Source: Naegleria gruberi
Lineage: Eukaryota
Reading direction: 5' to 3' (one strand)
DNA: 64,000 nucleotides
NCBI GenBank assembly: GCA_000004985.1
Contig: GG738894.1
Shown here in pieces: positions 2,755 to 64,000 of this stretch (positions within the stretch are counted from its first letter, which is position 1; each line of letters starts with the position of its first letter). The notes beneath the pieces were generated by a model that had not been told where the DNA came from, ran no database searches, and saw only the letters and a program-made list of their open reading frames with translations. A program made the translations under genes and the position numbers.

Positions 2755-4326
2755 CTACTGTTTAACTCTTTTAGAAATATCAGTTTCTTCAGTCGATTCT
2801 CTCTTTCTCTTCTCAGTTTCTTCACTATTGTAGTTTCTCACAATGTTTTCAATCACATTGTATGCTTCTAATATTTTCTTATTTTCAAAGCCCTGCTTAT
2901 CGAATATGTAATCAAATCTATGGGCTAATGATCTTGGCTCAAAGAATCCTCTCTCAGCCAGTTTACCAATGAGGGATGGATGGTTATTGAGAAGAAAATT
3001 GAAAAATTCTGTAAAATCCTTCTTGAAATTCTTCTCATAAACATCCACAAAGAATAATTCAATATTAGCACATGCTCTTTCTTCATCTTCTACCCTGACT
3101 CGGAGAGTATCTATAATAAGATCACTAATTAGTCTGGAATAGGAATAGGTAACGTGTGTCATTGTACTGCTTGTAAATTTAGGTAATTTGTAGAAATAAT
3201 GCTTTTCCAAGAGATTCCATAATTGAGTATTTGAGTAGTGATTAACAATTGCTATGCAGAAAAATGAATACACTCTGTAAGATACATCAAAGAGATGACC
3301 TCCATTCTCAAGAATCATTTCAACATTTTCAATCAAATCATCCTCATCCTTTGAAAATGCTCTTTGCAGTAAAGTATCAACAAGAGTATTAGAGAGGATT
3401 CCATACATTTTCAAAGAATTATCAATGAGTGTTCTTGTGGGTACACTCTCATCATAATAAGACGGAGTACTAAGTGGTACTAGAGTTACATGTTTTGGAA
3501 TTTCGATTCCATACTGCAGAGGCCCAAAGTGAGAAAGACCTTTTGTGTAATTTAATCCCATCTTTTCCATTAAAACCAAATCTTGTTCAGTCAACTTATC
3601 CTCATTCTTATATTCGCCAAAACGAACCAAATCATGAAATACTAATTTGATAGATTTTGATTTTGCTCTTCCACAAAACATTCCTTCAATATCAGATAAT
3701 GTCATTCTACAGGATTGAAATAAAACACTCCTCAAATTGGTGCATTTAGAAAAATTCAAAGATTTAGCTTCGAATGAACATCCAACAAATGAAATATGTT
3801 CCACAGTCTCAAAAACAGTACAATCACTCATCCTAAATGTTATTCTATCGTTTGTGTTTTCTCTAATCGTCCTCTTATCATACATTAAATTATCCAGTAA
3901 ATCCTTTGTAATATGCAAATCAGAAAAGTGAATTCTTTTTGCATTTACAAATACAGTACTCAATAAATTTCTAAATTGTTTTAAAATTAAACTTTTTGAT
4001 GCCTTGTCACGAGAGGGAATTTCCTTCTCATCAGATAAAGCTGTTAGTTTAATTCTGGTTGGGAAGGAATTAGAGGTTATAGCAGACGAATCAAGTGCAA
4101 AGGCCGAAAGTGCAGAGAGTCTATTTTTTCCAGCAGTTTCTATTCGAAACTTTAACCATCTGGTCATCCGAAACTCATCATAAATTGCCAAGTGTTGTAA
4201 TGCTCCTTGATAAAAGTATGAATTGACCATTTGCATCCGAATACATTGTTCTACATTCAAATAGGAACAAATTTCTTGTACAACATTTGCTGTTATAGTA
4301 TCATGTGAAAACAAGAGAGATTGCAA
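2755..4326 (-). CDS. hypothetical F-box-like / Cys-containing LRR-like protein (start uncertain)
   Basis: 523-aa ORF. N-terminal 'TANVVQEICSYLNVEQCIRMQMVNSYF' is an F-box-like hydrophobic pattern. Middle has LRR-like 'CTNLRSVLFQSCRMT'. The ORF-track first codon at 4326 is TTG, so the true Met may be internal (MQMV…) or in an upstream exon (candidate MPKSKVVHLDG + GTAGGT donor about 4380-4412). Confidence 0.45.
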   Translation of the reverse strand: MQSLLFSHDTITANVVQEICSYLNVEQCIRMQMVNSYFYQGALQHLAIYDEFRMTRWLKFRIETAGKNRLSALSAFALDSSAITSNSFPTRIKLTALSDEKEIPSRDKASKSLILKQFRNLLSTVFVNAKRIHFSDLHITKDLLDNLMYDKRTIRENTNDRITFRMSDCTVFETVEHISFVGCSFEAKSLNFSKCTNLRSVLFQSCRMTLSDIEGMFCGRAKSKSIKLVFHDLVRFGEYKNEDKLTEQDLVLMEKMGLNYTKGLSHFGPLQYGIEIPKHVTLVPLSTPSYYDESVPTRTLIDNSLKMYGILSNTLVDTLLQRAFSKDEDDLIENVEMILENGGHLFDVSYRVYSFFCIAIVNHYSNTQLWNLLEKHYFYKLPKFTSSTMTHVTYSYSRLISDLIIDTLRVRVEDEERACANIELFFVDVYEKNFKKDFTEFFNFLLNNHPSLIGKLAERGFFEPRSLAHRFDYIFDKQGFENKKILEAYNVIENIVRNYNSEETEKRKRESTEETDISKRVKQ

Positions 4327-4436: not shown

Positions 4437-6704
4437 TTACAATATGAGATAGTTCATTGAATTGGTCATCCAATCAATACAATAAAAATCAGAAATTACA
4501 AATATTTGATTGATAATTTCCAATCTGTTGGTGCATTTCATTAAATTGGAAGGAGGTTGCAAGTAAAGAAGGTCAACCAGGTCATTGAGATCTGATTCAT
4601 TGAGGGTAATGTCATTGTTAAGGATTATTTTGGAGGATAATCTCTCATTGAATTGTCCACTGATGAGTTTGGAGAAGAATTGGGAAGTGATTATGCAAAT
4701 TTCAGAGTCAATGGAGAGTTTCAAGTTTCGGTTCGTTTCTAATGTCAGAGTTAAATCACCCTTTCGTTTTCCACTTTTAATTTCCTCTCTCAAATAGGAA
4801 AAATAGTCCAATAAATCTTGCAATGGAAACTTAAAGTCAACTAAGGAAGCATGTTGAGAATCATTAGTTGAGTTTCTGACTTCTTCACAAATTGGCCTCA
4901 ATCTCGGAATGGATTCGCATAACATCAATTCCTCCTCAACATTATCCTTATTCGAAATTAGTGATTTTCTAATCCTATTAATGAGATAGGGATGAAGAGT
5001 TTGTTCTAATTTTTTGAATTGTAAAGTTGCCCTGAAAAGTTCAATCAAATCCAATAATTCAGCATTCAATTCTTTTCCTACGAGCCAATCTTTCAATAAT
5101 TCAACACAATTAACACTTGTTTCCATCTCAATTCCATTCTTTAATTGATCTTCCTTCATTAGTTCACTTTCGTCCAATCTTTTCATCAAAATTAAAGGTA
5201 TCAAGGATACGAATCCTTCTCTCGACTTTACAGGAATCTTTTTCATTGGTAAATTCGAATCTAGAAACCTTTCCATACCACCAATCAACTCTTGTTCACC
5301 ACAAATCTGTAAATCCAACTCAACCAAGGTGTCCAGATGAGGTTTCTCAACGCATGGATTATATCCACCAATTGAATAGCATTTCTTTTCAGAAAATATC
5401 AGAAACGAATCATAGTACATGTTCAATAAATTTGAATTGCTAATCTTGTACCATTGATTGGTGTGAATGTCAATAATCATCACTTCATTAATGTAATGTC
5501 TTCTGTCGTAGTGATCATTAATTAAACCATTCGAAACTATTAAATATCGATCCATGAATAAATTACCTCCCTTATTGTAAGATTTGATAAATTGTCGATT
5601 ATCATCATAAGAAATGAATCCTGATTTAACTAAATTTGGAGCACTAAATGCAGACCATTCCTTTTTTTGGAAGGAATAAATGTGGAGGGAGTTGGTGAGA
5701 GGACCGAAAGGTTTCTCTCTAGTCTTACCTGCATAGATTATCAATTCATCCTTTGATTCACAATACACAGAGGTGTGATAGGCAAGTTTAGTAAATTGTG
5801 GAGCAGTGGACGAAACTCTTTCGTTTGATGTAGACGAAAGAAGAGAAGAAGCAGAAGAGAAGAGCACACTTGGTACTTGAAGCATGGGATTCGCTGGTTT
5901 GATATTCATATCTTCTGATAGAAATTTCCATGTTTGACTGTCAAGATTAATCTCAATAATCTCATTCGAATATTGATCAGTGTTATATTCGTAACCTGCA
6001 ATAATGTACAGACAATCCTTTCGAATAAAACTTGAATGACCCTCTCTTCTTGGAAGTCTTTCCCTCGAATAGATATTTTTCTTTGAGATTCGAACAGGGT
6101 TTAGAATCGTCCATTCTTCAGTCTTTACGTCAAATTCGTATAGATTATTTGAGGAAATAACCGAACTTGTTCTTCCACCGAATACGTAAATCTTGTTTCG
6201 TTTAGGACAAGCACTCACCGAGTGATAGAAACAAGGATTCAGATAAATTCTACTATTAGTTGGAAGTTGATTCGTCTGATTGTTGGTAGACGAAAGTAAA
6301 GAAGGACCAACAAGTTGATTCTCAAATTCTCTACACTCTATGAATGATGGAAGTACTTTCCACTTTTTACTTTCTATATTATACTCCAAGAAACTATTCG
6401 AATTCAATTCTTTCCTCGTACTCCCGCCAAAAACATATATCTTTGAGTTTAGAATAACTGCCTTGTGTAGATGAATCCCAAATGGAAGGGAAGAAGGTAA
6501 ATCATTGGCGAGATTAGGATTATTTGTTGATTTTCTAATGGAAACTCGAGCCAAATCTTGTTTTTCCTCATAATTCGAATGTGGTTGAAAGAGAATTAAA
6601 TCAGCACCACTACTTGATGAAGAATCTTTTTGTAATTCTAACCAGTTTCCAACAGGCTTTGAGTTTCTTCCAAGTTTCGACTCTACACTTTGCAATACTC
6701 CCAT
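4437..6704 (-). CDS. Kelch-repeat protein with C-terminal BTB/POZ domain
   Basis: 755-aa ORF. Kelch blade signatures (KIYVFGGS, NKIYVFGGR, LYIIAGYE, CYSIGGYN). C-terminal approx. 150 aa have a BTB-like pattern (DLTLTLETNRNLKLSIDSEICIITSQFFSKLISGQFNE…LNESDLNDLVDLLY). Confidence 0.6.
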   Translation of the reverse strand: MGVLQSVESKLGRNSKPVGNWLELQKDSSSSSGADLILFQPHSNYEEKQDLARVSIRKSTNNPNLANDLPSSLPFGIHLHKAVILNSKIYVFGGSTRKELNSNSFLEYNIESKKWKVLPSFIECREFENQLVGPSLLSSTNNQTNQLPTNSRIYLNPCFYHSVSACPKRNKIYVFGGRTSSVISSNNLYEFDVKTEEWTILNPVRISKKNIYSRERLPRREGHSSFIRKDCLYIIAGYEYNTDQYSNEIIEINLDSQTWKFLSEDMNIKPANPMLQVPSVLFSSASSLLSSTSNERVSSTAPQFTKLAYHTSVYCESKDELIIYAGKTREKPFGPLTNSLHIYSFQKKEWSAFSAPNLVKSGFISYDDNRQFIKSYNKGGNLFMDRYLIVSNGLINDHYDRRHYINEVMIIDIHTNQWYKISNSNLLNMYYDSFLIFSEKKCYSIGGYNPCVEKPHLDTLVELDLQICGEQELIGGMERFLDSNLPMKKIPVKSREGFVSLIPLILMKRLDESELMKEDQLKNGIEMETSVNCVELLKDWLVGKELNAELLDLIELFRATLQFKKLEQTLHPYLINRIRKSLISNKDNVEEELMLCESIPRLRPICEEVRNSTNDSQHASLVDFKFPLQDLLDYFSYLREEIKSGKRKGDLTLTLETNRNLKLSIDSEICIITSQFFSKLISGQFNERLSSKIILNNDITLNESDLNDLVDLLYLQPPSNLMKCTNRLEIINQIFVISDFYCIDWMTNSMNYLIL

Positions 6705-6961: not shown

Positions 6962-7743
6962 ATGAGCAAAAACAAAGCTAACAATAATTCTAACAAATCT
7001 ACTGCACAAATTGTGGATAACAAATTGGACATGTCGAGTGTGAAACGTTATGTACCAAAGCAAAGATCTGCAATGGCAGGACTTAAGGAGACAGTTCAGA
7101 ATAATTCGGAGAATGGAGTGGTGACATTGGCAGGTAATAAGTTTAAAACACCCAAGTCAGTATTGTGTTTTATTCCACCAGTTGAAGTTTGGGAACCAAT
7201 TCAAGAAATTAGAAATAAGTATGCAAATGTTGCAAGATGGGTAAGTTGCTAATTTGACATGTTTTGATGATTATTGACATTCAATAGCCACAACCACACA
7301 TTTGTTTATTGTACCCTTTCGTTCCGAGTGAATTATTTGATGAAGCTGAAACTCTTTTGAAACCATCTCTTTCAAAAATCAAACCATTTGAAGTGACTCT
7401 TTCAAAATTTTCATATTTTAATACAATTGACCATTTGACAACTAAAGGACAAGGAACAATTCACTTTGAACCAGATAAGGACAGTTATGAGAAGATGAAA
7501 ATTGTACAAAAAACATGCTTTGATTTATTCCCATATTGTAATGCCTTAACAAAGAGAGGATCTTTCAGACCTCATTTAAGTGTTGGAGTTTTTGACATTG
7601 ACACTCTGGATGAAACAATGAAACAATTCAAGAGTGAATGGAAGGATTTGACATTTACATTGGATCATGTTTGTTTGATGAGTAGAGTGGATAATGAATC
7701 ACCATTTGTTATTTCACATAGAATTCCATTCGAAGGAAAATAA
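6962..7743 (+). CDS. 2H-phosphoesterase superfamily (LigT/CPDase-like) protein; exons 6962..7240 and 7288..7743
   Basis: ORF 6962..7252 ends at TGG|GTAAGT (7241). Acceptor …TTCAATAG at 7287. Exon 2 continues in frame (PQPHICLLYPFVPSE…). Two H-x-(S/T/C)-x motifs about 90 aa apart (PHICLL and PHLSVG), as in 2H phosphoesterases. Confidence 0.45.
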
Positions 7744-11771: not shown

Positions 11772-11842
11772 TGCATTAGCCGGGAGTCGAACCCGGGTCA
11801 CCAGCTTGGAAGGCTGGTATGATACCGTTACACTACTAATGC
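11772..11842 (-). tRNA. tRNA-Gly(UCC)
   Basis: The reverse complement GCATTAGTAGTGTAACGGTATCATACCAGCCTTCCAAGCTGGTGACCCGGGTTCGACTCCCGGCTAATGCA folds as a cloverleaf. It has a 7-bp acceptor stem (GCATTAG/CTAATGC), anticodon stem CCAGC/GCTGG with loop CUUCCAA (U33, anticodon UCC, A37), and T-arm CCGGG-TTCGACT-CCCGG. It is nearly identical in its 3' half to vertebrate tRNA-Gly-TCC. Confidence 0.8.
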
Positions 11843-11930
11843 TCTTGTCCCTTAATAATAATTCCCAACATTATTAAAATCTATTAAGGAACAGAATTGC
11901 CACCAAAATAATGCAAAGCAAAATTTCAGA

Positions 11931-12011
11931 CGCAGACTGCAGGATTCGAACCTACGAAGGTTTCCCCAACAGATTTCAAGTCTGTCGCCTTAACCACTCG
12001 GCCAAGTCTGC
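11931..12011 (-). tRNA. tRNA-Ser(UGA), type II with long variable arm
   Basis: The reverse complement GCAGACTTGGCCGAGTGGTTAAGGCGACAGACTTGAAATCTGTTGGGGAAACCTTCGTAGGTTCGAATCCTGCAGTCTGCG has a 7-bp acceptor stem (GCAGACT/AGTCTGC), anticodon stem ACAGA/TCTGT with loop CUUGAAA (anticodon UGA), a 13-nt variable arm, and T-loop TTCGAAT. The GGCCGAGTGGTTAAGGC D-arm is typical of Ser tRNAs. Confidence 0.8.
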
Positions 12012-15240: not shown

Positions 15241-15291
15241 TNNNNNNNNNNNNNNNNNNNNNNNNNNNNNNNNNNNNNNNNNNNNNNNNNN
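15241..15291. other. scaffold gap (51 N) truncating the 3' end of the phospholipase B-like gene
   Basis: Run of N. ORFs spanning it (15236..15640) are artefacts. Confidence 0.95.
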
Positions 15292-15293
15292 GT

Positions 15294-16936
15294 TTATTCC
15301 ACATGGCTGAACTTGGCAGGGCATTGACCATTCCAAACAAAGACTGGTTGATCAACACTGGTTGGTCCATTGATAATGTGAACAGTGTTAATGTCGAGAA
15401 TTGAAGAAACCTTAGTATCATAACCTCCACTGCAGCTTCTTGTAGCATCAGTAGCAGTTGGAGACAAATCATTTCTGCTCGAAATGGAATAGCCAGGTTG
15501 ACCAAGAGAAAGTGGATCATACTTCCAATTGTTATATCTAAGAAGATTCTTAATAGTATCAATTGAGTTGACCTTATTTTGATCTCTTCTAAAAATGTTA
15601 GCTCTAACACATGTTTCATAGGACAACATGTCTGAGGCATTTGGTCTCTTTAAGATTTCAGGATATCCAGAAATTGTGAAAACTTCCTTATAGAATGGAA
15701 CATTGTAACTAGGCCAGTATCCATAGCTGAGAATTTGAGTTTGATCAGCACCAATAACCTTTCCTGGAATTTGCTCAACAACCCAAAACAAGTCATTGGC
15801 AAGTGGTTGGCCAGGAACGAACTTTTTAGTATCCAAAACCATGAATTGATTATTGTAAGTACCAGAGTTATATTCAGAAAAGATTTTACTCCATGAAGGA
15901 GCATCATCAGCAAGTCTGTTGGCTAAAATAACTCTTTGCCAACACAACAATGATTCTGGTTTGAGTAAATCATATAAGGAAGTGTTGAAAATATTGTTGG
16001 AAGTCTCAATAACAACTAATCCATTTTGAGTAATGTAAAAATCATCATTTGAAGCAAGTGTAGCTGGGTAACCAGAGAATGTGACCTTTGGTGAAGCAAC
16101 CAATTTGTTATTGAAATTGAAAGTGTAAGTCTTATAGATACGACTGAAATTTTCAATGATATAATGATAATGGTTAGAAAACAAACTTACGTCATAGCTG
16201 CAAACACGAACCACGAATTATGTCCAAAGTAGATATTACTGAAATCTGGTGCGACCTTGAAGATGGCAGAGCAGTGACCATTGTCTCTGGCGAATTGTAA
16301 AATTTGAGCTGAGGTCATCTTGTTAAAATTTGGTCTGAAATCCTTCTTAACATTGACAATATCAAACAAGTCACCAGAAGCACTCATTACTTGCAATTCA
16401 GCATAACTAATTTTTTCTGAACTATTTGTAGTGGCATAATTGTAACCATCAAGCAAACCCTCCATTTGCAAATAAACAGTTCTGACCTGTTGCCAGAACG
16501 GATCGTTGGCATACTTGGCAGATGAATCTCTAACCCAAGCACGTTGAGACTCCAAGAAATCTCTCACATATTGTGGCATCTTCTTATCAGGATTCTCAGC
16601 CCACACATACGTATTCAAATTAACAAAGTGATTGTAAATTCTCTTCCTTGTCAAGACTCCTTCCAAATAACCGGCAGCATAACTTTGCAATTCATCCTTT
16701 ATCAATCCATTGGTTTCAATAGAGAGAACATCCCATCCTTTTGCCTCATAACTATCATCATAATGTGCTGCAGCAATACCCGATCGCAGATTATAAACTC
16801 CATTCCTAACTATGTAATTCCCATTTTCATAGTAAAAGGTGGCATCGAGAGCCAAAACCTTGTTGGAGGCTTCATTTAAAACACCACAAACAATCAAGAG
16901 TCCGAGGATAAGTAAAAGAAGTGGTGATTTGTTCAT
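15294..16936 (-). CDS. phospholipase B-like (PLBD/LAMA family) Ntn-hydrolase; exons 16191..16936 and 15294..16143; C-terminus lost in N gap
   Basis: ATG at 16936 (MNKSPLLLLILGLLIVCGV signal peptide). Family-typical 'DNGHCSAIFK' (Cys nucleophile context) and 'YFGHNSWF'. ORF ends …AAMT at ATG AC|GTAAGT (16190). The 47-nt intron ends …AATTTCAG (16144). Exon 2 continues in frame (TRIYKTYTFNFNNKL…) for about 290 aa to the gap. Confidence 0.65.
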
Positions 16937-17089
16937 TTTTTTTTTATCAAGACTATTAATGTGAACCTTACGGAGATGTAAGCTATAGAATGGAATTTTC
17001 ATGTTTTAAATATAATAGATTTTTAACAAATATTTACATTATATTTAGCACAAATAATTAAATTTTCAATACTACCAAACAAATAAAAA

Positions 17090-18121
17090 ATGGACAAAAT
17101 CACACCACAAGCCATTCTTCATGCCGAAAAAATAATTCGTTCCGTAGGCGTGAAGAAAACCTCCCTCGACACTTGTCTTTCTCTGTCCAACCAGAAAAGA
17201 GCCATTTTGTTTAAATGTGAAAATGAACAAATTACAGGATCTTTCAAGATGAGAGGAGCCACTCATAAATTAATGCAATACATGATGAAAGAGGATGATA
17301 ATTTGAAAAAGAGAATTTGTACTGCATCGTCTGGAAATAATGGATTTGCTGTGGCGTATGTAGCTAAAGCATTTGGATATAATGCAACTGTGTTTGTGCC
17401 TGAAAATGCAGACACGGCAAAGATTGCAAATATTAGAGATGTGATGGGAGCAGATATTAGATTGTATGGTGAAAATTGTTTGGATACTGAATTGTTTGCA
17501 AAGAAATATGCACAAGAGAATGGAATTCCATATTTCTCACCATACAATGATTCAGATATTGTTATGGGACAAGGAACAATTGGTGTGGAAATTGAGGAAC
17601 AATTGAATGAAATTATGAAAAATAGAGGAGGTTCAATTAATGGAATTAAATTGGAAGATGATGGATCAAATCTTAATGTTTATGTATCAGTCGGAGGCGG
17701 TGGATTAATTGGTGGAATAGCTCGCTACCTTAAACATGCCTTCCCTAAATGTAATATAATTGGATGTCAACCACAAAATAGTGCTGTCATGTACCATTCA
17801 GTTAATGCAGGTAAAATTCTGGAAGTTGTTGAAGAATTTGATACAATCAGTGATGGAACTGCTGGCTTAATTGAAGTAGATACAGTCACATTCGAGATTT
17901 GTCAACAATTTGTGGATCGATATGTCCTCTCAACTGAAGAGGAAATTCTCTCATCACTCAAATTCCTCCTCCTGAAAGAACATACTCTAGTAGAAGGTGC
18001 AGCTGCTTGTGCTTTGGCCTGCCACTTGAAAGATGATCAATGTAAAGATAATTCGATCAACGTGATTGTTTTATGTGGAAAGAATATTTCCTCTGAAAAG
18101 ATTAAAAAGATTTTACAGTAA
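17090..18121 (+). CDS. PLP-dependent serine/threonine dehydratase / serine racemase family enzyme
   Basis: 343-aa ORF with ATG. PLP-lysine motif 'ITGSFKMRGA'. Gly-rich 'ASSGNNGFAVAYVA' and 'VSVGGGGLIGGIA' loops typical of fold-type II PLP enzymes. Confidence 0.7.
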   Translation: MDKITPQAILHAEKIIRSVGVKKTSLDTCLSLSNQKRAILFKCENEQITGSFKMRGATHKLMQYMMKEDDNLKKRICTASSGNNGFAVAYVAKAFGYNATVFVPENADTAKIANIRDVMGADIRLYGENCLDTELFAKKYAQENGIPYFSPYNDSDIVMGQGTIGVEIEEQLNEIMKNRGGSINGIKLEDDGSNLNVYVSVGGGGLIGGIARYLKHAFPKCNIIGCQPQNSAVMYHSVNAGKILEVVEEFDTISDGTAGLIEVDTVTFEICQQFVDRYVLSTEEEILSSLKFLLLKEHTLVEGAAACALACHLKDDQCKDNSINVIVLCGKNISSEKIKKILQ

Positions 18122-18215
18122 TACTTTTAATTAAATTATTAATAATTTTATTTTCAATTAAATTTTTACTAATTTTTTTCAAAAAAAATGAGTACTGTTC
18201 TGATTGCTTGCTATT

Positions 18216-18350
18216 CGGAATCGATGATGAACACGAGAAGCTGATTATCTAAATTGTTTTTGAATTGATGATCATCATTATGATGATTTTCGATAAAAAA
18301 GCATTGAAATGAAGACAAATAAACCTATACTCGATGAACTGAAGATTCCG
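18216..18350 (+). ncRNA. candidate box C/D snoRNA
   Basis: 5' CGGAATC|GAUGAUGA (box C, 18223..18230) … CUGA (D', 18241..18244) … UGAUGA (C', about 18267..18272) … CUGA (box D, 18339..18342)|GATTCCG 3'. The 7-nt terminal inverted repeat CGGAATC/GATTCCG brackets boxes C and D as in canonical C/D snoRNPs. Intergenic, not part of any ORF. Confidence 0.4.
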
Positions 18351-18647
18351 AAATGTAATGATCACGAACTGGAAGTAATTTTAATAAAATCAAATATTCA
18401 TCACCAAGTTAACTAATCTTTTCCGATCCAAAGCTTGGGGTTATTGGCTTTAAATAGAAACCACTTCAATAATTAGAAGAAAGAAACCATTCAACAGTAA
18501 TTTTCGATCGTCATAAGGACGATTTGAAATCCAGTGCACTACTTCCTTCTTAATTATTAAAAAATTTTGTTTAAAAAATACCTCAAATCTAATAGAATCA
18601 ATAAGTATATTAAATTTTATTGCTCATACATTAATAAGGATACAATC

Positions 18648-19184
18648 ATGTTAGAATCAAACATTAAGGTACATCTTGAGAATATTAGTATCACTGGAGT
18701 AGATAAAAACGAACTTTCGTATATGATAGCGAATGGAGGTGCGTTCACCACTTTAATTGTTAAAGCCATGCTAAGGGGAAATGAGGAGCAAATTAAAAAG
18801 GAGGTTAATGATTTTTTGAACACCACAGACAAGGCAATAATAGAGATTTTCCTTTCCTTATCCTGTAGGTATCAAATTGAGGATGATGAGCATGATTGTA
18901 AATTCTTGGACAGGATTAATCCTCAAGAGTTTAGCAGAAACATACAATCAATTCCTAAACCTCAATTCTTAAAAGATATATTCAGCTTTAAAAAGGCTCC
19001 ATTCCTGGATGGAATGAGAAAATTAATAACATCACATCGAATTGCATTTGAGAAGGAAGAATTAGAAGCAATTGAAGCAAGAAAGTTGCTATTCGGTGAA
19101 GATGTTCAACAAAAAAAATCGACTAAGAAAAAAGCTGCCACTAAAACAATTAAAAAAAGCTACCAAGAGAAGAAGAAAGAATAA
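18648..19184 (+). CDS. hypothetical protein with Lys-rich C-terminus
   Basis: ORF 18567..19184; first ATG at 18648 (MLESNIKV…). No recognisable domain. Basic KKSTKKKAATKTIKK tail. Confidence 0.3.
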   Translation: MLESNIKVHLENISITGVDKNELSYMIANGGAFTTLIVKAMLRGNEEQIKKEVNDFLNTTDKAIIEIFLSLSCRYQIEDDEHDCKFLDRINPQEFSRNIQSIPKPQFLKDIFSFKKAPFLDGMRKLITSHRIAFEKEELEAIEARKLLFGEDVQQKKSTKKKAATKTIKKSYQEKKKE

Positions 19185-19466
19185 AGTTTGTTGATTGTTT
19201 AGGAGCTATTCTCTACCATGTCGCAAGACCTGATATTACAAACTATGCTCAGTACAACTCTATAGTTAATAAAGCTAAATCTCAATAATGCCAAACAAAA
19301 GTATCTCATTAAATAACCTCTTCTTATTTCAGATCATTGATCAAAGTAATTGTTATATTCATCGAATCGGTATTGAAAGAATGTAATTGGACAACAAGGT
19401 ATGAATTGAATAGTTGGAGGTATTGGTATGTGTTCCACTTGTATAGTGTTGTGTTTGGTTTTGTAC

Positions 19467-20716
19467 TCAAAGAGTCTCAAGCCCTCTGATTGATAATGGT
19501 AAACCTCTGGCATCAAGGTATTGCAACGAGTCCAAGTTGACTAGAAATTCAACTCCCTGATCATTAATAGAAGTTGCAGGAACAGAGAGTCTTTGGAGGT
19601 TTTTCATTTGGGAAAGATAAAGAGCTCCCAACTTGGTAATCATGTGATTTGTGCCAATTTGGAGATCTCGTAAACTGGCCATTTTAGAAATATATTCAAC
19701 TCCCTTATCGTTCATACAAGTGTTTGTTAAATTCAATTCTCGTAAATTAGTCAATTTAGAAATCAAGACTGCTCCTAGTTGACCAATCGGGTTATCGTTC
19801 AAAATGAGTGTCTTTAAAGTTTTCATTTTCACAAGATATTCAACACCTTCTGCATCAATTTCATTAAATCCCAAATAAAGAACTTCCAAACTGAGTATTG
19901 CTAAAGAATTTGGTTATTTTCTAAATGTAAACATTTCAAAGATGTTATTCTATATATGTGTTCCAACCCAATTCCACTAATATTAGTATTATTCAATCCA
20001 AGAAATGTCAAAGTTCTCATATTAGAAATGCATTCAGCATGTAAATTACCAATCTTGTTGAGCTCCAAATTAAGATGACTTAGTGATCCAAATTCTAATA
20101 ACAGATTGATGTCTTTCAGTTCTAATTCACAATTCACTAGCTCCAATAATTTCAAATGCTTCAATCTAGTCAAGTTCTTCAACTCTCCATTGTAATAATT
20201 CTTATCTAACTGTAATTCTTTTAAACTCTGAATTTGTGAAATATAGGAAAATACTTTTGGCTCCAAAACACAATGATCAATTTCCAATCTCTTTAAACCC
20301 TTCAATTTGGATACATAATATGAATTATCATCCGAAAGTAAACTCTTTTTCAATTTTAAAACTTGTAAATTTTCAAAATAGGGAAAACATTCCATCACCC
20401 CCAAACCAATCTCACAGAATTCTGCTCTTTCCATTCCAAAAAACAATCCATCGTCACAAAAATTCCAAAAATCTTCATTGGTTTGTAATTCCAATCCAAG
20501 TTTTCGTCCTACATTGAAAGAGAAGGGACATTCCCTTATAATTTGCTGCCACTTCTTACAAACTAGTCGGAAATAGGAAATCAATTCAATTCCTTCTATG
20601 AAAGGAAAGATGTTATCTCGTAATATGTCATCAGGCAGTCCGTAAAATTGTGATTGTATGGAAGAATGGAAGCACAAACACGAGTAGCTGGTAGTATCCT
20701 GATGTGTTGTTGACAT
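19467..20716 (-). CDS. F-box / RNI-like leucine-rich-repeat protein, reading frame broken by a +1 shift near 19895
   Basis: ATG at 20716. F-box-like 'LPDDILRDNIFPFIEGIELISYFRLVCKKWQQII'. Then repeated 'LxxLxLxxNxI' LRRs. ORF 19901..20716 stops at TAG (…LENNQIL*). LRRs continue immediately in the +1 frame (…SLEVLYLGFNEIDAEGVEYL…) to 19467. Confidence 0.45.
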
Positions 20717-26260: not shown

Positions 26261-29200
26261 TCAAAAACTTGGAAATTCTCTTTCCTTTGAAAGAGGAAAA
26301 CAATAAGACAAGTCCAGAAAATAATTATTCAATGGACACTCTAATAAAATAGTTTTTGAGACTTTTTCATTTCGAGATTGCTTGATACGGATAGTAAATC
26401 TTGGGCTTACAATATGTGGCATTTTCTCTTCTTGATTATTGAATAATTTGAAGCAATTCAAATTGAAAAGGCAACATGTATACACAAATGGACTTCTAAT
26501 GAGTGACTTAAATCTTTCTTCAAGATTAAACTCATTGTCGTCCTCTTCTATGTATTGATTGTAGGTATGGAAGAGCCAGTATGCTGCCTTGTGGTTGAGC
26601 TTATCCAAACTGTCTCCATCATGTTTGATAAAGACTTTCTCCCAGTTTATCTTATCTTCTTCAAGGCAATCTTTAATGCTTTCGAATAATTTCTGTTTGT
26701 GTGCTGAGAATTTATCAGAAAGGACAATCTCATCATTTTTTCTGGTTGACCAATAGAGTCTCCATTGTGAATACGCTTCCTTAAATTCATCTTTCCATCT
26801 TTGCCACTCTGAGGAGTATATTTCAGATGGGTTTTCAAAAACAGTGTCAAGTTGCTTTGTATCTGAAAAAACCATCCTATTGAATATATTTCTAATTAGG
26901 TCAAACATTCTTGCTTCGAATGTATCAAGTTCTATATGAGATTGGTCAGTAATCTTCAATTTGCAAAGTTCCATCCACTTTGGAGAATCCTTTTTTGGAA
27001 TTTCATACAACTGTTTAGCATTAAAAGCTGATCCCTTAATAGTATCAATGCTGTCGTGATACATTTTGGACAATTTAAGTTTGATATCTATTCCAACCTT
27101 GGAAGAATCTTCTCTCCAACACATTGTTTTAAGATAAACTTCTGAAATTTTTGATGATTGTTCCATCATTTCCAATACAGTTTTTCTTACATCTTCCATG
27201 CTTAGTGAATTTTTAACAGTTTTGGTCACCTTATTGGTGGCAGCTCCATCGTTATAATTCAATTTTGGTTTGAGATTTTGATCAAATAACTTGACAATTT
27301 CTGGATCGAAAATAATCTCATACAAGTCGCCATCCAAATCACCTCCTGCCATGTAGCATAATGGTTCTGGGACTTTCTTATAATTTGGATTGTGTCCAAA
27401 GACAATGACATCTCTTCTTGATTGGAGGAATTCTGTTGGGGGATGCTTGACCAACTTTAAGCATTGGATATCACCTTCATAGGCAAGAGGATTTCTATAG
27501 ACAAGAACCTTGTCAATTTTAGCATAATCTAAACTTCGAATCAACTTGGAGCATGGGATGTGAACTTCATCATGTTTCAAAGTCGAACTTTCATCATAAA
27601 CACCCATACCACTTAAAAACCCAGGATGTTTACATTTCATACTGAGCTTGTCACTAACCATGGATTCAAACTTGCTTTCAATATTGTCTTTTACAACGGA
27701 GGAAATAAAATAATTATCCAATGAATGTTCAGCCATTATTAAATCTCTAGCAATAGATTCTTGCGAAGTTTCTCCTGATTGAGAGAGGAGCACGTTGCAT
27801 AAATATTCTGGATTATCCTTATTCTCAACAATTTCCATTAATTGAGTTTCGTAAAAATTTTTGAACAATTTTTCCATTTCTTCTTCATTCGTAGTCATTT
27901 GCAGTAAGCAAGACATGATATTTCTATTAATATTGCCACCATGAACACGAGCAACATTCAATATATCAATCTTATTGTAAATTGAATAATTTCCTTCAAA
28001 TTTCACCATTGAATTTCTCAAAATGACTTTGGTATTGGATGGCAATTTGTGCTTTTTAAGTAATTCTGCCCACATTGATTTGTTAACCTTTTGAATGACT
28101 CCTTTGGCTCCCAAAATTCTTACCTGCATGGCACTGATGTTCTTGAAATTCTTTTCGAATAGTCTACCTTGTTTCGTATCTGATTCAAATAACTTGTCCA
28201 TAAAGAAATATGGAACAGAGTAGGTATTTTCCAGGACTTGTTCGAAGAAATCTTCAACAGCCATACCAGCACCATCAGTCACTGCAATATCATCTGAAAT
28301 AATTTGGATATCATCTTGTTTCCATTCCACAATACTTGGAGTACTAGTTCCCATACTCAATCCAACTCTACTAGCAACCTTTCTAGGTCCATGCTCCTCA
28401 GCTTTTTCAAAGGTACCCAACATTTGCTTCAATATTTCCAAATTCAACAATGTTGAGTTGTAAAAGATACAGGAATCACCTTTCAAACCAGAATTTGAAG
28501 TACCTAACAAACAATACTTATGACCTTCATGAACAATACCATAGGAGAGACAATATTCCTTCTTGCATTCTGAGAGTGCTTTCAGATCCTCTTTGGATGT
28601 AAAATCAAATTTTACAACCATTAAACATTTTCCCAAATTCAAACTCATTAAAATTCTTGCTAATCTTGAGAATGAATTCAAGATTGAGTAACGATTGGTT
28701 CCATCACCAATAATCGCATACTTTCCATTGTTTCCCTCCATTTTCTTCCATCTGTTTTTCACATGACAAACTAGTGGATAGAATTCACCAAAGAATTGTT
28801 CGTATCCACCAGCAACATTTGAATTGAAAAGTGATTGAAAAAGAGTTTGATTAGCTTGTGATTCAAACAGTTCCAATTCTCTGGCAAAGTATCTGTATCT
28901 CTTCATCAAGTATTCCAATGGATTCTTTGCTAAATCCATGGTGCTATCACACATATAGGAAATCTTTGCACTCAACTCTGAATATTGAACATTATCTATC
29001 TTGACAACAATCTTCCAAACATTCTTTCCAAAACCAAGAACATTCCAATCTTCCCAGCCGGTGATTGTTTGCAAATCTTCATCTCTCATTGGCAATACAA
29101 TAATCAATTTACCATTAACCNNNNNNNNNNNNNNNNNNNNNNNNNNNNNNNNNNNNNNNNNNNNNNNNNNGTTGATTGCATTAACCAATGTCTTTTGATC

Positions 29201-49456: not shown

Positions 49457-51776
49457 ATGGAACAACTTCAACTAACAATACAAAAGAAGGTAAAATATTA
49501 TTTAACCATTGCAGACAAGAACCTCCACAAACAAATATCGCAAATGGTAGAAAACGGAGGAGGGATTATTGTTGATGATATAGATGCTAACACGATTATA
49601 GTTACTGACGAAAAGGAAAAAAATTTATTTGATCCGACTCAGCATATGCTAATACAAATGTAAGTTTTAATTGCCAAATTGTTCATCTTTAAGTAATAAG
49701 CGTAAGAGAGAAGAGGATGATTTTGTCTCCAACCAATCTGAGAGGNNNNNNNNNNNNNNNNNNNNNNNNNNNNNNNNNNNNNNNNNNNNNNNNNNAAAGT
49801 ATTCGAATTATGTTTCCACCACCATGGCTAAAGAGGATAGTAAAAACTTAAGTACAGCAACGGTTATGTTTATTGGAGATTGTCCAGGTGTAGGGAAGTC
49901 TAGATTTGCATATGAATTACCTGGTTTTTTGAAACATAAATTCAATTCACCACTGAGATATCATTTTGTTAATTTGGCAATTTGGTTCAATTCAGGTTAT
50001 AATCCAACTATTGAAGAAGCAAAAGACAACCTAATTATATCAACTGCAGCAAGAATGATTTTTAGTTACATTACACATGTCAGATCACATAGTTACAATG
50101 GAAAAATTATGGACGAGTTAACAAGTTTGGCTTTTTATAGGGAAATTTATAATGATTTGCAAAGAAGTGTTTATCCTAATGATCAAACACTTGTAAATGT
50201 AATTTCATGGATCATTAGAAGGGAATCTAATTTTACTGATTTGCCTGTTTGGATACATTTAACCATTGATGAATATAACCAAGCATTTCAGTACATAACT
50301 GATATTTCTATAATTGACAATTGGTGTATTGCTATTTCAAACATTCATCAAACTGTTAAATTTAGCCGTGATCTGTTTACTAATTTACTCACAGGTACCC
50401 ATGTTCACACCATGATGAATCTCAAATCTGTAGAGTCTGGAGGAGAAGCATTTCTCTCCAGAATTACAATTTCTAAATTCAACAAGGAAGAAAATTACCT
50501 TCTTTACAAACAAATGAAAATGCCCTACGAAATTAAGTTGTTAAATGCATATCTAACAATGGGAGGACATGCAAGATTATGTGTAGAATTTATCAAAGAA
50601 TATAGAAACACTAAAAGTATTTCAGCTACCCTAAAGGAGCTTCAAAATGTTGTTGGTAATAGGAAACAAGATAGATTTCAACTGAATTTAAATAGAGATG
50701 AAATTGAATTTTTCTTATCTCTCTGTTTCACAGGTATTACCATTTCAAAGGACTATGTTTTTAACTCCACACCAATTTTACAATATCAGAAGAGTAATAT
50801 TGTACTTATGAAACAAATTTCAACTGACCAAATTTTAATAGAGATACCTCTTTTAATAATATCGGTAATGTTAGAGAAATTATCATCATCATCATTTCTA
50901 AACAAACTGGGTAACTCTTTTGAACATTGGGAAACATTCAATGATAATTTTGATAATTTTGAGACATTTAATCAACAACTATTAGAGACAAAGCTAAATT
51001 GTTTCCAAAAGCTAAAAGCATTGAATGTTATTAATGAACCTATTACAATCAAAGATTTATTTACAATAGATGTTGATTTTCATGATTATATAATTCAATT
51101 AGATAACTCCACTTATTCTTCTGTAACACTAGACAAACAGTATCCAATTACCAATGGTATAACTTTAAGTCCTAATATTATTTACAAAAATGGCAAGTCA
51201 GCTCCTTTCGCTGATTTATTTTCATATTTGAAAGTATGTAAACCAGACAAGAGCCAAACCGAATTATTTTGCTATCTACAAGTCAAACATACAAAAAAAC
51301 AAGCTCACATAGGTTTTAAAGATGATATAGAACCTGAATTAAAAAAACTAGAAAATCAAAAAGAAAAGTTATCCAGTGCTCCTATTTTCATGCTTTTTAT
51401 TAGTAACAGACCTCATCTACAAAAACAACCATTGACAAATAATTATACTCAAAAATATAGTGTAATATACTTAGATAATGGAAAGCGTTACTTTAGCCCT
51501 TTTTCTGATTTATTGAACTGCAATATAGGTATTGAGTTACCAATTAAGGAGTTATCTGTTGATAATTTGAAATATATTTTGGGCAGAAGTTGTACAAAAA
51601 GAAAAAGTTTTCATTTCCGAACATTAGTAAGCGCTATTGGGACAGCTAATGAGAATGAAATAGCTACTATACTTGTACAATTCTGTGATGAAGAAATGCT
51701 CAGTAGTATGCTGAGTTTCGTGAAAGAAAAAGAAATAATCAAGGAAGCATTGGCTCTACTGGTACAATCGAATTGA
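49457..51776 (+). CDS. BRCT-like N-terminal exon + novel P-loop NTPase; exons 49457..49663 and 49707..51776; 50-N gap at 49746..49795
   Basis: Exon 1 (MEQLQL…KKVKYYLTIADKNLHKQISQMVENGGGIIVDDIDANTIIVTDEKEK…) has a BRCT-like pattern and ends ATG|GTAAGT. The 43-nt intron ends …AATAAG. Exon 2 is in frame (RKREEDDFVSNQSER…). Walker A 'VMFIGDCPGVGKSRFAY' and Walker-B-like 'VWIHLTIDEYNQAF'. Long C-terminal region without recognisable repeats. Confidence 0.5.
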
Positions 51777-63551: not shown

Positions 63552-64000
63552 NNNNNNNNNNNNNNNNNNNNNNNNNNNNNNNNNNNNNNNNNNNNNNNNN
63601 NNNNNNNNNNNNNNNNNNNNNNNNNNNNNNNNNNNNNNNNNNNNNNNNNNNNNNNNNNNNNNNNNNNNNNNNNNNNNNNNNNNNNNNNNNNNNNNNNNNN
63701 NNNNNNNNNNNNNNNNNNNNNNNNNNNNNNNNNNNNNNNNNNNNNNNNNNNNNNNNNNNNNNNNNNNNNNNNNNNNNNNNNNNNNNNNNNNNNNNNNNNN
63801 NNNNNNNNNNNNNNNNNNNNNNNNNNNNNNNNNNNNNNNNNNNNNNNNNNNNNNNNNNNNNNNNNNNNNNNNNNNNNNNNNNNNNNNNNNNNNNNNNNNN
63901 NNNNNNNNNNNNNNNNNNNNNNNNNNNNNNNNNNNNNNNNNNNNNNNNNNNNNNNNNNNNNNNNNNNNNNNNNNNNNNNNNNNNNNNNNNNNNNNNNNNN
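63552..64000. other. scaffold gap (449 N)
   Basis: Run of N to window end. Confidence 0.95.

Follow-up and report, generated by a model that had tools for sequence, protein, structure and literature searches.

Between two genes in nuclear DNA of Naegleria gruberi strain NEG-M, an element of about 135 to 139 nt (positions 18214-18352, plus strand) displays the complete box C/D snoRNA layout. The DNA analyzed is a 64,000-nucleotide stretch of contig GG738894.1, referred to here as the window. We tentatively interpret the element as a single-copy, unannotated orphan box C/D snoRNA gene, a prediction made from sequence in which our confidence is slightly less than even. The combination of boxes, stem, and fold is rare and specific to one strand, and no rRNA target was found for it in the rDNA of congeners.

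An initial annotation of this DNA had described a candidate C/D snoRNA at this place. The C/D architecture proved to be real, strand specific, and statistically unusual, and comprises a terminal stem, a K-turn-compatible C/D pair, a D'-like box, a C'-like box, and a hairpin between the latter two boxes. Several details required correction. The two parts of the proposed 7-nt terminal inverted repeat, CGGAATC (18216-18222) and GATTCCG (18344-18350), are exact reverse complements, as claimed; the true length of the repeat is 9 bp. Its 5' half (TTCGGAATC, 18214-18222) is the exact reverse complement of the 3' half (GATTCCGAA, 18344-18352). The 5' half is paired in both the MFE and the centroid folds, and the 3' half is likewise paired in the fold. 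Box C had been placed immediately inside the 5' stem half. A perfect RUGAUGA match, AUGAUGA, is indeed present, but GAUGAUGA occupies 18223-18230, and the consensus is therefore at 18224-18230, separated from the stem by one spacer nucleotide (G18223). Box D, a perfect CUGA at 18339-18342, had similarly been described as immediately inside the 3' half, from which it is separated by one unpaired A (A18343). Thus, the C and D boxes are each offset by 1 nt from the stem, and A18343 gives the junction a slightly non-canonical form.

The interior of the element was traced in the same manner. A perfect D'-like CUGA was confirmed at 18241-18244, 10 nt past box C. The spacer between the two (ACACGAGAAG, 18231-18240) is the putative D' guide; its 10 nt are the minimum guide length, and it has no rRNA match above chance. 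A 10-nt linker (18245-18254) connects D' to an internal hairpin of 49 nt (18255-18303), which has 20 bp, including 3 G·U pairs, and a UUA loop. The hairpin includes both internal UGAUGA motifs (18266-18271 and 18281-18286), which form its opposing arms. Because they are paired to each other, these motifs are poor C' candidates. The C' box originally assigned to the UGAUGA near 18267 thus corresponds to an existing motif at 18266-18271 that is base-paired within the hairpin, and AUGAAGA at 18309-18315 is better placed for this function. The latter C'-like box, which was chosen after inspection, has one mismatch, retains both GA dinucleotides, and is separated from the hairpin by UUGAA (18304-18308). 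The 23-nt spacer that follows (CAAAUAAACCUAUACUCGAUGAA, 18316-18338) is the putative D guide, which is mostly unpaired in the fold and, like its D' counterpart, has no rRNA match above chance.

We compared the predicted stability of the element with that of 200 dinucleotide shuffles. On the plus strand, the whole element folds into the terminal stem and the internal hairpin with an energy of -34.8 kcal/mol (z = -3.87), and none of the 200 shuffles was as stable. The internal hairpin is significant in its own right (-17.7 kcal/mol, z = -3.98, 0/200 shuffles as stable). The minus strand is less stable (-27.7 kcal/mol, z = -2.63), and the three G·U pairs of the hairpin become A·C mismatches on that strand. 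A strand-specific fold that depends on G·U pairs argues for an RNA rather than a DNA structure.

According to our model, the element would be transcribed, and the 9-bp terminal stem would join box C (AUGAUGA) and box D (CUGA) into a K-turn. From established K-turn geometry, G18223-A-U would form the 3-nt bulge, followed by the tandem sheared pairs G18226·A18342 and A18227·G18341, then by a U·U pair, and then by the Watson-Crick pair G18229-C18339. This K-turn may recruit Snu13, Nop58/Nop56, and fibrillarin, as expected for snoRNP assembly. The 20-bp hairpin would bring together the D' CUGA and the C'-like AUGAAGA, forming a putative second protein-binding module. The sole credible antisense element would be the 23-nt single-stranded stretch ahead of box D, which could direct 2'-O-methylation of the nucleotide opposite A18334. 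The target may be another RNA; alternatively, the snoRNA may have a non-methylating role.

The upstream gene (17090-18121, plus strand) encodes a PALP-family serine/threonine dehydratase homologue. Consistent with the initial annotation, the element lies outside this gene and outside any ORF: the conserved C terminus of the PALP protein ends at 18121 and was aligned up to the stop with the orthologues of N. lovaniensis, N. fowleri, an uncultured Naegleria, and Willaertia. A snoRNA encoded in an intron of the PALP gene was ruled out, as this alignment reaches the final residues ahead of the stop codon. The spacer is AT rich, as described (26% G+C), and extends for 445 to 526 nt to the next long ORF rather than for the 440 nt originally given. 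Both flanking ORFs share the strand of the element, which lies 93 nt past the PALP stop codon and 296 nt ahead of the following ATG. A 27-nt tandem duplication (18122-18175, 85% identical) directly follows the PALP stop, in the presumed 3' UTR.

The next long ORF (18648-19184, plus strand) has 178 aa, or 205 aa from an upstream TTG at 18567, and is long for DNA of 31% G+C. It has no Pfam domain and is absent from the annotated proteome, and a search of 5.8 billion proteins at E <= 1e-3 turned up no homologue. This ORF either represents an orphan gene missed by the annotation or does not code for protein. Four long ORFs of the window proved identical to annotated NEG-M proteins, all encoded on one scaffold of 499,907 bp. 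The neighboring genes in the window are eukaryotic and encode chromo/HMG/SprT, phospholipase B, RNA-dependent RNA polymerase (RdRP), DUF4116, and LRR proteins. In the phospholipase B gene (15294-17002, minus strand), consecutive parts of the Pfam model are covered by two separate but overlapping ORFs (15294-16214 and 16187-17002), which points to either a frameshift or a short intron around 16187-16214. Just 3' of this gene is a run of N (15242-15291). This run and those at 29121-29170 and 49746-49795 are 50-bp assembly gaps, and a further run of 449 bp (63552-64000) forms the window end. One of the N runs breaks the RdRP gene region.

Searches for known families and for homologues of the element were negative. 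At gathering thresholds, Rfam detected only two tRNAs in the whole window, the adjacent Gly(UCC) and Ser(UGA) genes at 11772-12011 on the minus strand, and nothing on the element. Permissive Rfam scans of 18100-18660 and 18350-19500 returned only generic, non-significant C/D matches. The best sub-threshold match was to snoR29, with 20.2 bits versus a threshold of 50 (E = 4.6), and all but one of the sub-threshold matches on the plus strand were C/D snoRNA families anchored on box C at 18224-18230. To compare the orthologous positions, four Naegleria loci were searched by blastn and nhmmer, and the Willaertia spacer was read directly and scanned for tRNAs. No homologue of the element was found 3' of the PALP orthologue of N. 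lovaniensis, N. fowleri, the uncultured Naegleria, or Willaertia magna, and Rfam gave no match on Naegleria loci L045-L047. Gene order downstream of PALP is not conserved in these organisms, and the missing syntenic homologue is therefore weak evidence. In N. lovaniensis and N. fowleri, a convergent kinase gene lies 27 to 86 nt from the PALP orthologue. The spacer at this place in the uncultured Naegleria is 567 nt long and unrelated. In Willaertia magna, the spacer past the PALP orthologue contains a tRNA-Lys(UUU) gene (7302-7374 of locus L050, minus strand). The equivalent slot in Willaertia is thus occupied by a small-RNA gene that is unrelated to the candidate.

To estimate how often such a layout would arise by chance, we performed 1000 first-order Markov simulations of the window and counted, on both strands, RUGAUGA and CUGA motifs 40 to 300 nt apart that were flanked by a perfect stem of at least 9 bp. 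The simulations yielded 0.007 such pairs per 64 kb. The real window contains about 2.2 times as many C boxes as the simulations, which raises the expectation to about 0.015 per 64 kb; inverted repeats overall are only about 1.15 times as frequent as simulated. On both strands, the window has 109 RUGAUGA and 427 CUGA sites, among which the candidate alone has a 9-bp flanking stem. CUGA occurs 9 to 25 nt past 8% of the window's C boxes, and a C'-like box occurs 10 to 26 nt ahead of 9% of the CUGA sites. If the features are independent, the five-feature layout (a stem of at least 9 bp, C, D, D', and C') is expected roughly 1e-4 times per window and less than 0.1 times per genome, an estimate that is partly post hoc and that concerns a region locally rich in GAUGA-type motifs, where C-like boxes have a higher chance of occurring. 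In 458 kb of real DNA (the window plus loci L001-L050), the candidate was the sole pair with a stem of at least 9 bp and the sole one with D' and C'. Together, these results make it unlikely that the architecture is random within the window.

The same numbers bear on the alternative that survives best, namely, that the element is a chance look-alike. In this case, an AT-rich spacer that contains degenerate repeats of GAT/ATC, along with two inverted repeats unrelated to each other, would happen to resemble a snoRNA and would give rise to no stable RNA or function. We regard this as less likely than a snoRNA, although it is a serious alternative. The raw material for coincidences is abundant: besides the C and D motifs counted above, the window alone contains 183 inverted repeats with arms of at least 9 nt and loops of 40 to 320 nt. 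The N. gruberi genome has roughly 41 Mb, and over this length a rate of 0.007 to 0.015 per 64 kb extrapolates to a handful of stem, C, and D coincidences expected by chance. Moreover, the candidate was picked by eye from the raw sequence, which introduces a selection effect, and the lack of an rRNA target for either guide, of an Rfam match, and of syntenic conservation is also what a coincidence would produce. Set against this reading are the rarity of the complete five-feature layout, the uniqueness of the candidate in the 458 kb of real DNA, and the independently significant hairpin, whose G·U pairs work only on the strand that bears the boxes.

One look-alike was in fact encountered in the window. 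At 5392-5608 on the minus strand, RUGAUGA and CUGA motifs spaced 216 nt apart are flanked by an 8-bp perfect stem (CATTTCTT/AAGAAATG). This second pair sits in a coding ORF of 755 aa (4437-6704) and has no D', C', or rRNA complementarity. This pair is probably a chance look-alike and serves as a reminder of the false-positive rate.

We consider it improbable that the element is instead a structured cis-element. It could act within the 3' UTR or a read-through transcript of the PALP mRNA, as the 5' leader of ORF 18648-19184, or as a palindromic protein site in the DNA (TGATGATCATCA, a perfect 12-nt palindrome inside the hairpin); a regulatory protein would bind the K-turn or the hairpin. The orientation of the element and its spacing relative to both flanking ORFs are compatible with such a role, as are the palindrome itself and the failure to find a target in trans. 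Conversely, the G·U-dependent, strand-specific fold favors RNA over a DNA site, nothing ties dehydratase mRNA to K-turn regulation, and the downstream ORF that would be served by a leader is the one without a homologue and outside the annotated proteome.

The initial annotation had also proposed that the regions upstream of D' and D guide methylation. Naegleria rRNA genes are carried only on an extrachromosomal plasmid (PMC5805870), and the nuclear window therefore cannot provide them. We scanned metagenomes with the genus-level ITS forward primer GAACCTGCGTAGGGATCATT and obtained 44 heterolobosean rDNA loci. Of these, 13 also have the exact Naegleria reverse-primer site and constitute the Naegleria-type set; the rDNA tested is that of congeners rather than NEG-M's own. 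One locus (L001, metagenome contig JACCDN010942333.1) is a complete circular Naegleria rDNA plasmid of 14,034 bp (14,161 bp minus a 127-bp terminal overlap). It encodes SSU, 5.8S, and LSU, and a group I intron of the GIR1 branching-ribozyme (twin-ribozyme) type is present in the SSU gene. In length it nearly equals the N. gruberi EGB rDNA plasmid, for which 14,007 bp has been published (PMC5805870). The plasmid recovered from metagenomes thus makes a target test feasible for Naegleria despite the absence of rDNA from the nuclear assembly.

Both guide regions were scored against these rRNAs. Nowhere in the element was there a Watson-Crick run of more than 9 nt to the rRNA of the complete plasmid L001, and the number of 9-mers was that expected by chance. 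For the guides named in the initial annotation, ACACGAGAAG and ACCTATACTCGATGAA, complementarity under the +5 rule was at chance level across the 13 Naegleria-type loci, which does not bear out their proposed role in rRNA methylation. The best score of the D guide was matched by 47% of shuffled guides and ranked 339 among the window's 427 CUGA sites. The best match of the D' guide, 9 bp including one G·U, was equaled by 17% of shuffles and ranked 221 of 427, so that both guides are at or below the median CUGA site. Their RNAduplex energies versus rDNA were no better than those of shuffled guides, no complement of at least 10 nt conserved across the 13 Naegleria-type loci was found, and +5-rule scoring against all 44 heterolobosean loci also remained at chance level.

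The closest approach to a target involved LSU. Pairing of the D guide with the conserved segment UGGGUAUAGG in Naegleria-type rRNA extends over 10 bp, of which two are G·U. This site was rejected as a target: all 13 Naegleria-type loci have GAGCUGGGUAUAGGAGCG, which places a C opposite A18334 and leaves the +5 nucleotide mismatched. With UUGAGUAUAGG, present in some non-Naegleria heterolobosean rDNAs, the D guide forms 11 bp (one G·U) that include the +5 position, with a score within the chance range. The LSU core segment of this 11-bp duplex type, GACUUGAGUAUAGGGGCGAAAGAC, was seen in L003, L008, L016-L018, L022, L027, L030, L034, L035, and L042; all 13 Naegleria-type loci have CUGGGUAUAGG instead. 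In addition, 18214-18232 has complements of 9 to 11 nt in the SSU of L001 (pre-rRNA positions 452-462 and 3152-3175; TCGATTCCGGA, GTTCATCAT, and CATTGATTTCG). These are unlikely to act as guides because they use K-turn and stem nucleotides, and their count is as chance predicts.

Other RNAs were considered as well. No target with 3 or fewer mismatches was found inside the window, including its two tRNAs, and viral contigs scanned with both guide-plus-box strings gave no match. Among the conserved human and yeast U1, U2, U4, U5, and U6 sequences, the only match apparent is one of 7 nt, to the U2 5' end (CUUCUCG).

These results weigh heavily on the reading of the element as a canonical 2'-O-methylation guide for rRNA or snRNA, acting through ACACGAGAAG (D') and/or ACCUAUACUCGAUGAA (D) by the +5 rule, which we now consider highly improbable. 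Its C/D architecture is what such a guide would have, and the 10-bp and 11-bp LSU duplexes, together with the origin of the tested rDNA in metagenomic congeners rather than NEG-M, leave it some room. The +5 mismatch in every Naegleria-type locus, the guide scores and duplex energies indistinguishable from those of shuffles, and the lack of a conserved complement speak against it. For rRNA, the canonical guide reading appears to be largely refuted, and methylation of rRNA is not supported by the congeners' rDNA.

As no rRNA target was found, the predicted RNA is an orphan with respect to rRNA. We assumed that most protist C/D snoRNAs have an rRNA target, as those of yeast do. Orphans make up 30 to 50% of mammalian C/D snoRNAs and a quarter of the C/D RNAs of the archaeon Pyrobaculum; in yeast, C/D snoRNAs for which rRNA offers no target are few (PMC8162545). 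Since orphans are documented, the missing target lowers the probability of a snoRNA and is still compatible with a real one. Other features were also counted against a snoRNA: the lack of an Rfam family, the 10-nt C-to-D' spacer, the extra A, the above-average length, the selection by eye, and the stem-8 look-alike in a coding ORF. With these points included, the orphan snoRNA gene is the reading that we prefer. It is conceivable, at rather less than even probability, that the element is both the first described heterolobosean box C/D snoRNA and a true orphan, whose 23-nt antisense element would have a non-rRNA target (snRNA, tRNA, or mRNA) in a C/D snoRNP, or which would serve, without methylation, as a chaperone or acetylation-type guide.

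In the literature searched, we found no snoRNA catalogue for Naegleria or Heterolobosea. If real, the element would be a gene of an ordinary type (a C/D snoRNA) from a lineage for which that literature has none catalogued. It would offer a starting point for snoRNA annotation in Naegleria and would add a modest case of an orphan C/D RNA from beyond animals and yeast; it opens no new question. As a lesson in method, box and stem motifs alone are insufficient to establish a methylation guide.

Several known systems were compared with the element. Miniature inverted-repeat transposable elements (MITEs) have short terminal inverted repeats around about 100 to 200 bp, and the element has 9-bp terminal inverted repeats around 121 bp of AT-rich sequence; its inverted repeat differs in abutting C and D boxes as in a snoRNA, and a MITE or other repeat element was rejected, as the element occurs only once in the 64-kb window, has no copy in the other Naegleria loci, and shows no obvious target-site duplication. 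Archaeal C/D sRNAs have the same boxes and K-turn logic; they are about 50 to 60 nt long, lack a long internal hairpin, and have symmetric spacers of 12 nt, and the element belongs to a eukaryotic host. By score, the Rfam models closest to the element are snoR29 (RF01603), SNORD50 (RF00278), and sR5 (RF01304), and the element reaches 13 to 20 bits with the C/D models, far under their gathering thresholds of 40 to 55.

Orphan or non-methylating C/D snoRNAs, among them the processing snoRNAs U14, U8, and U13, have the C/D core in RNAs that are often longer and bear extra internal hairpins. In Rfam, the element has no sequence similarity to U14, U8, or U13, to SNORD115/116, or to snR4/snR45. Moreover, snR4, snR45, U13, and U14 use bipartite or extended complementarity to SSU, which was not seen in the element, as its SSU matches of at least 9 nt involve only box C or the terminal stem. 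Eukaryotic rRNA-guide C/D snoRNAs share with the element a RUGAUGA and a CUGA joined by a terminal stem, D'-like and C'-like boxes, and single-stranded spacers before D and D' (PMC8162545); the element differs from them in that its spacers gave no +5-rule antisense match to rRNA. C/D snoRNAs average 60 to 90 nt (PMC8162545), compared to 135 to 139 nt for the element, whose C-to-D' spacer is only 10 nt. The orphan and non-methylating C/D snoRNAs, such as mammalian SNORD115/116 and the yeast acetylation guides snR4/snR45, share with the element a C/D core that lacks a canonical methylation target (PMC8162545).
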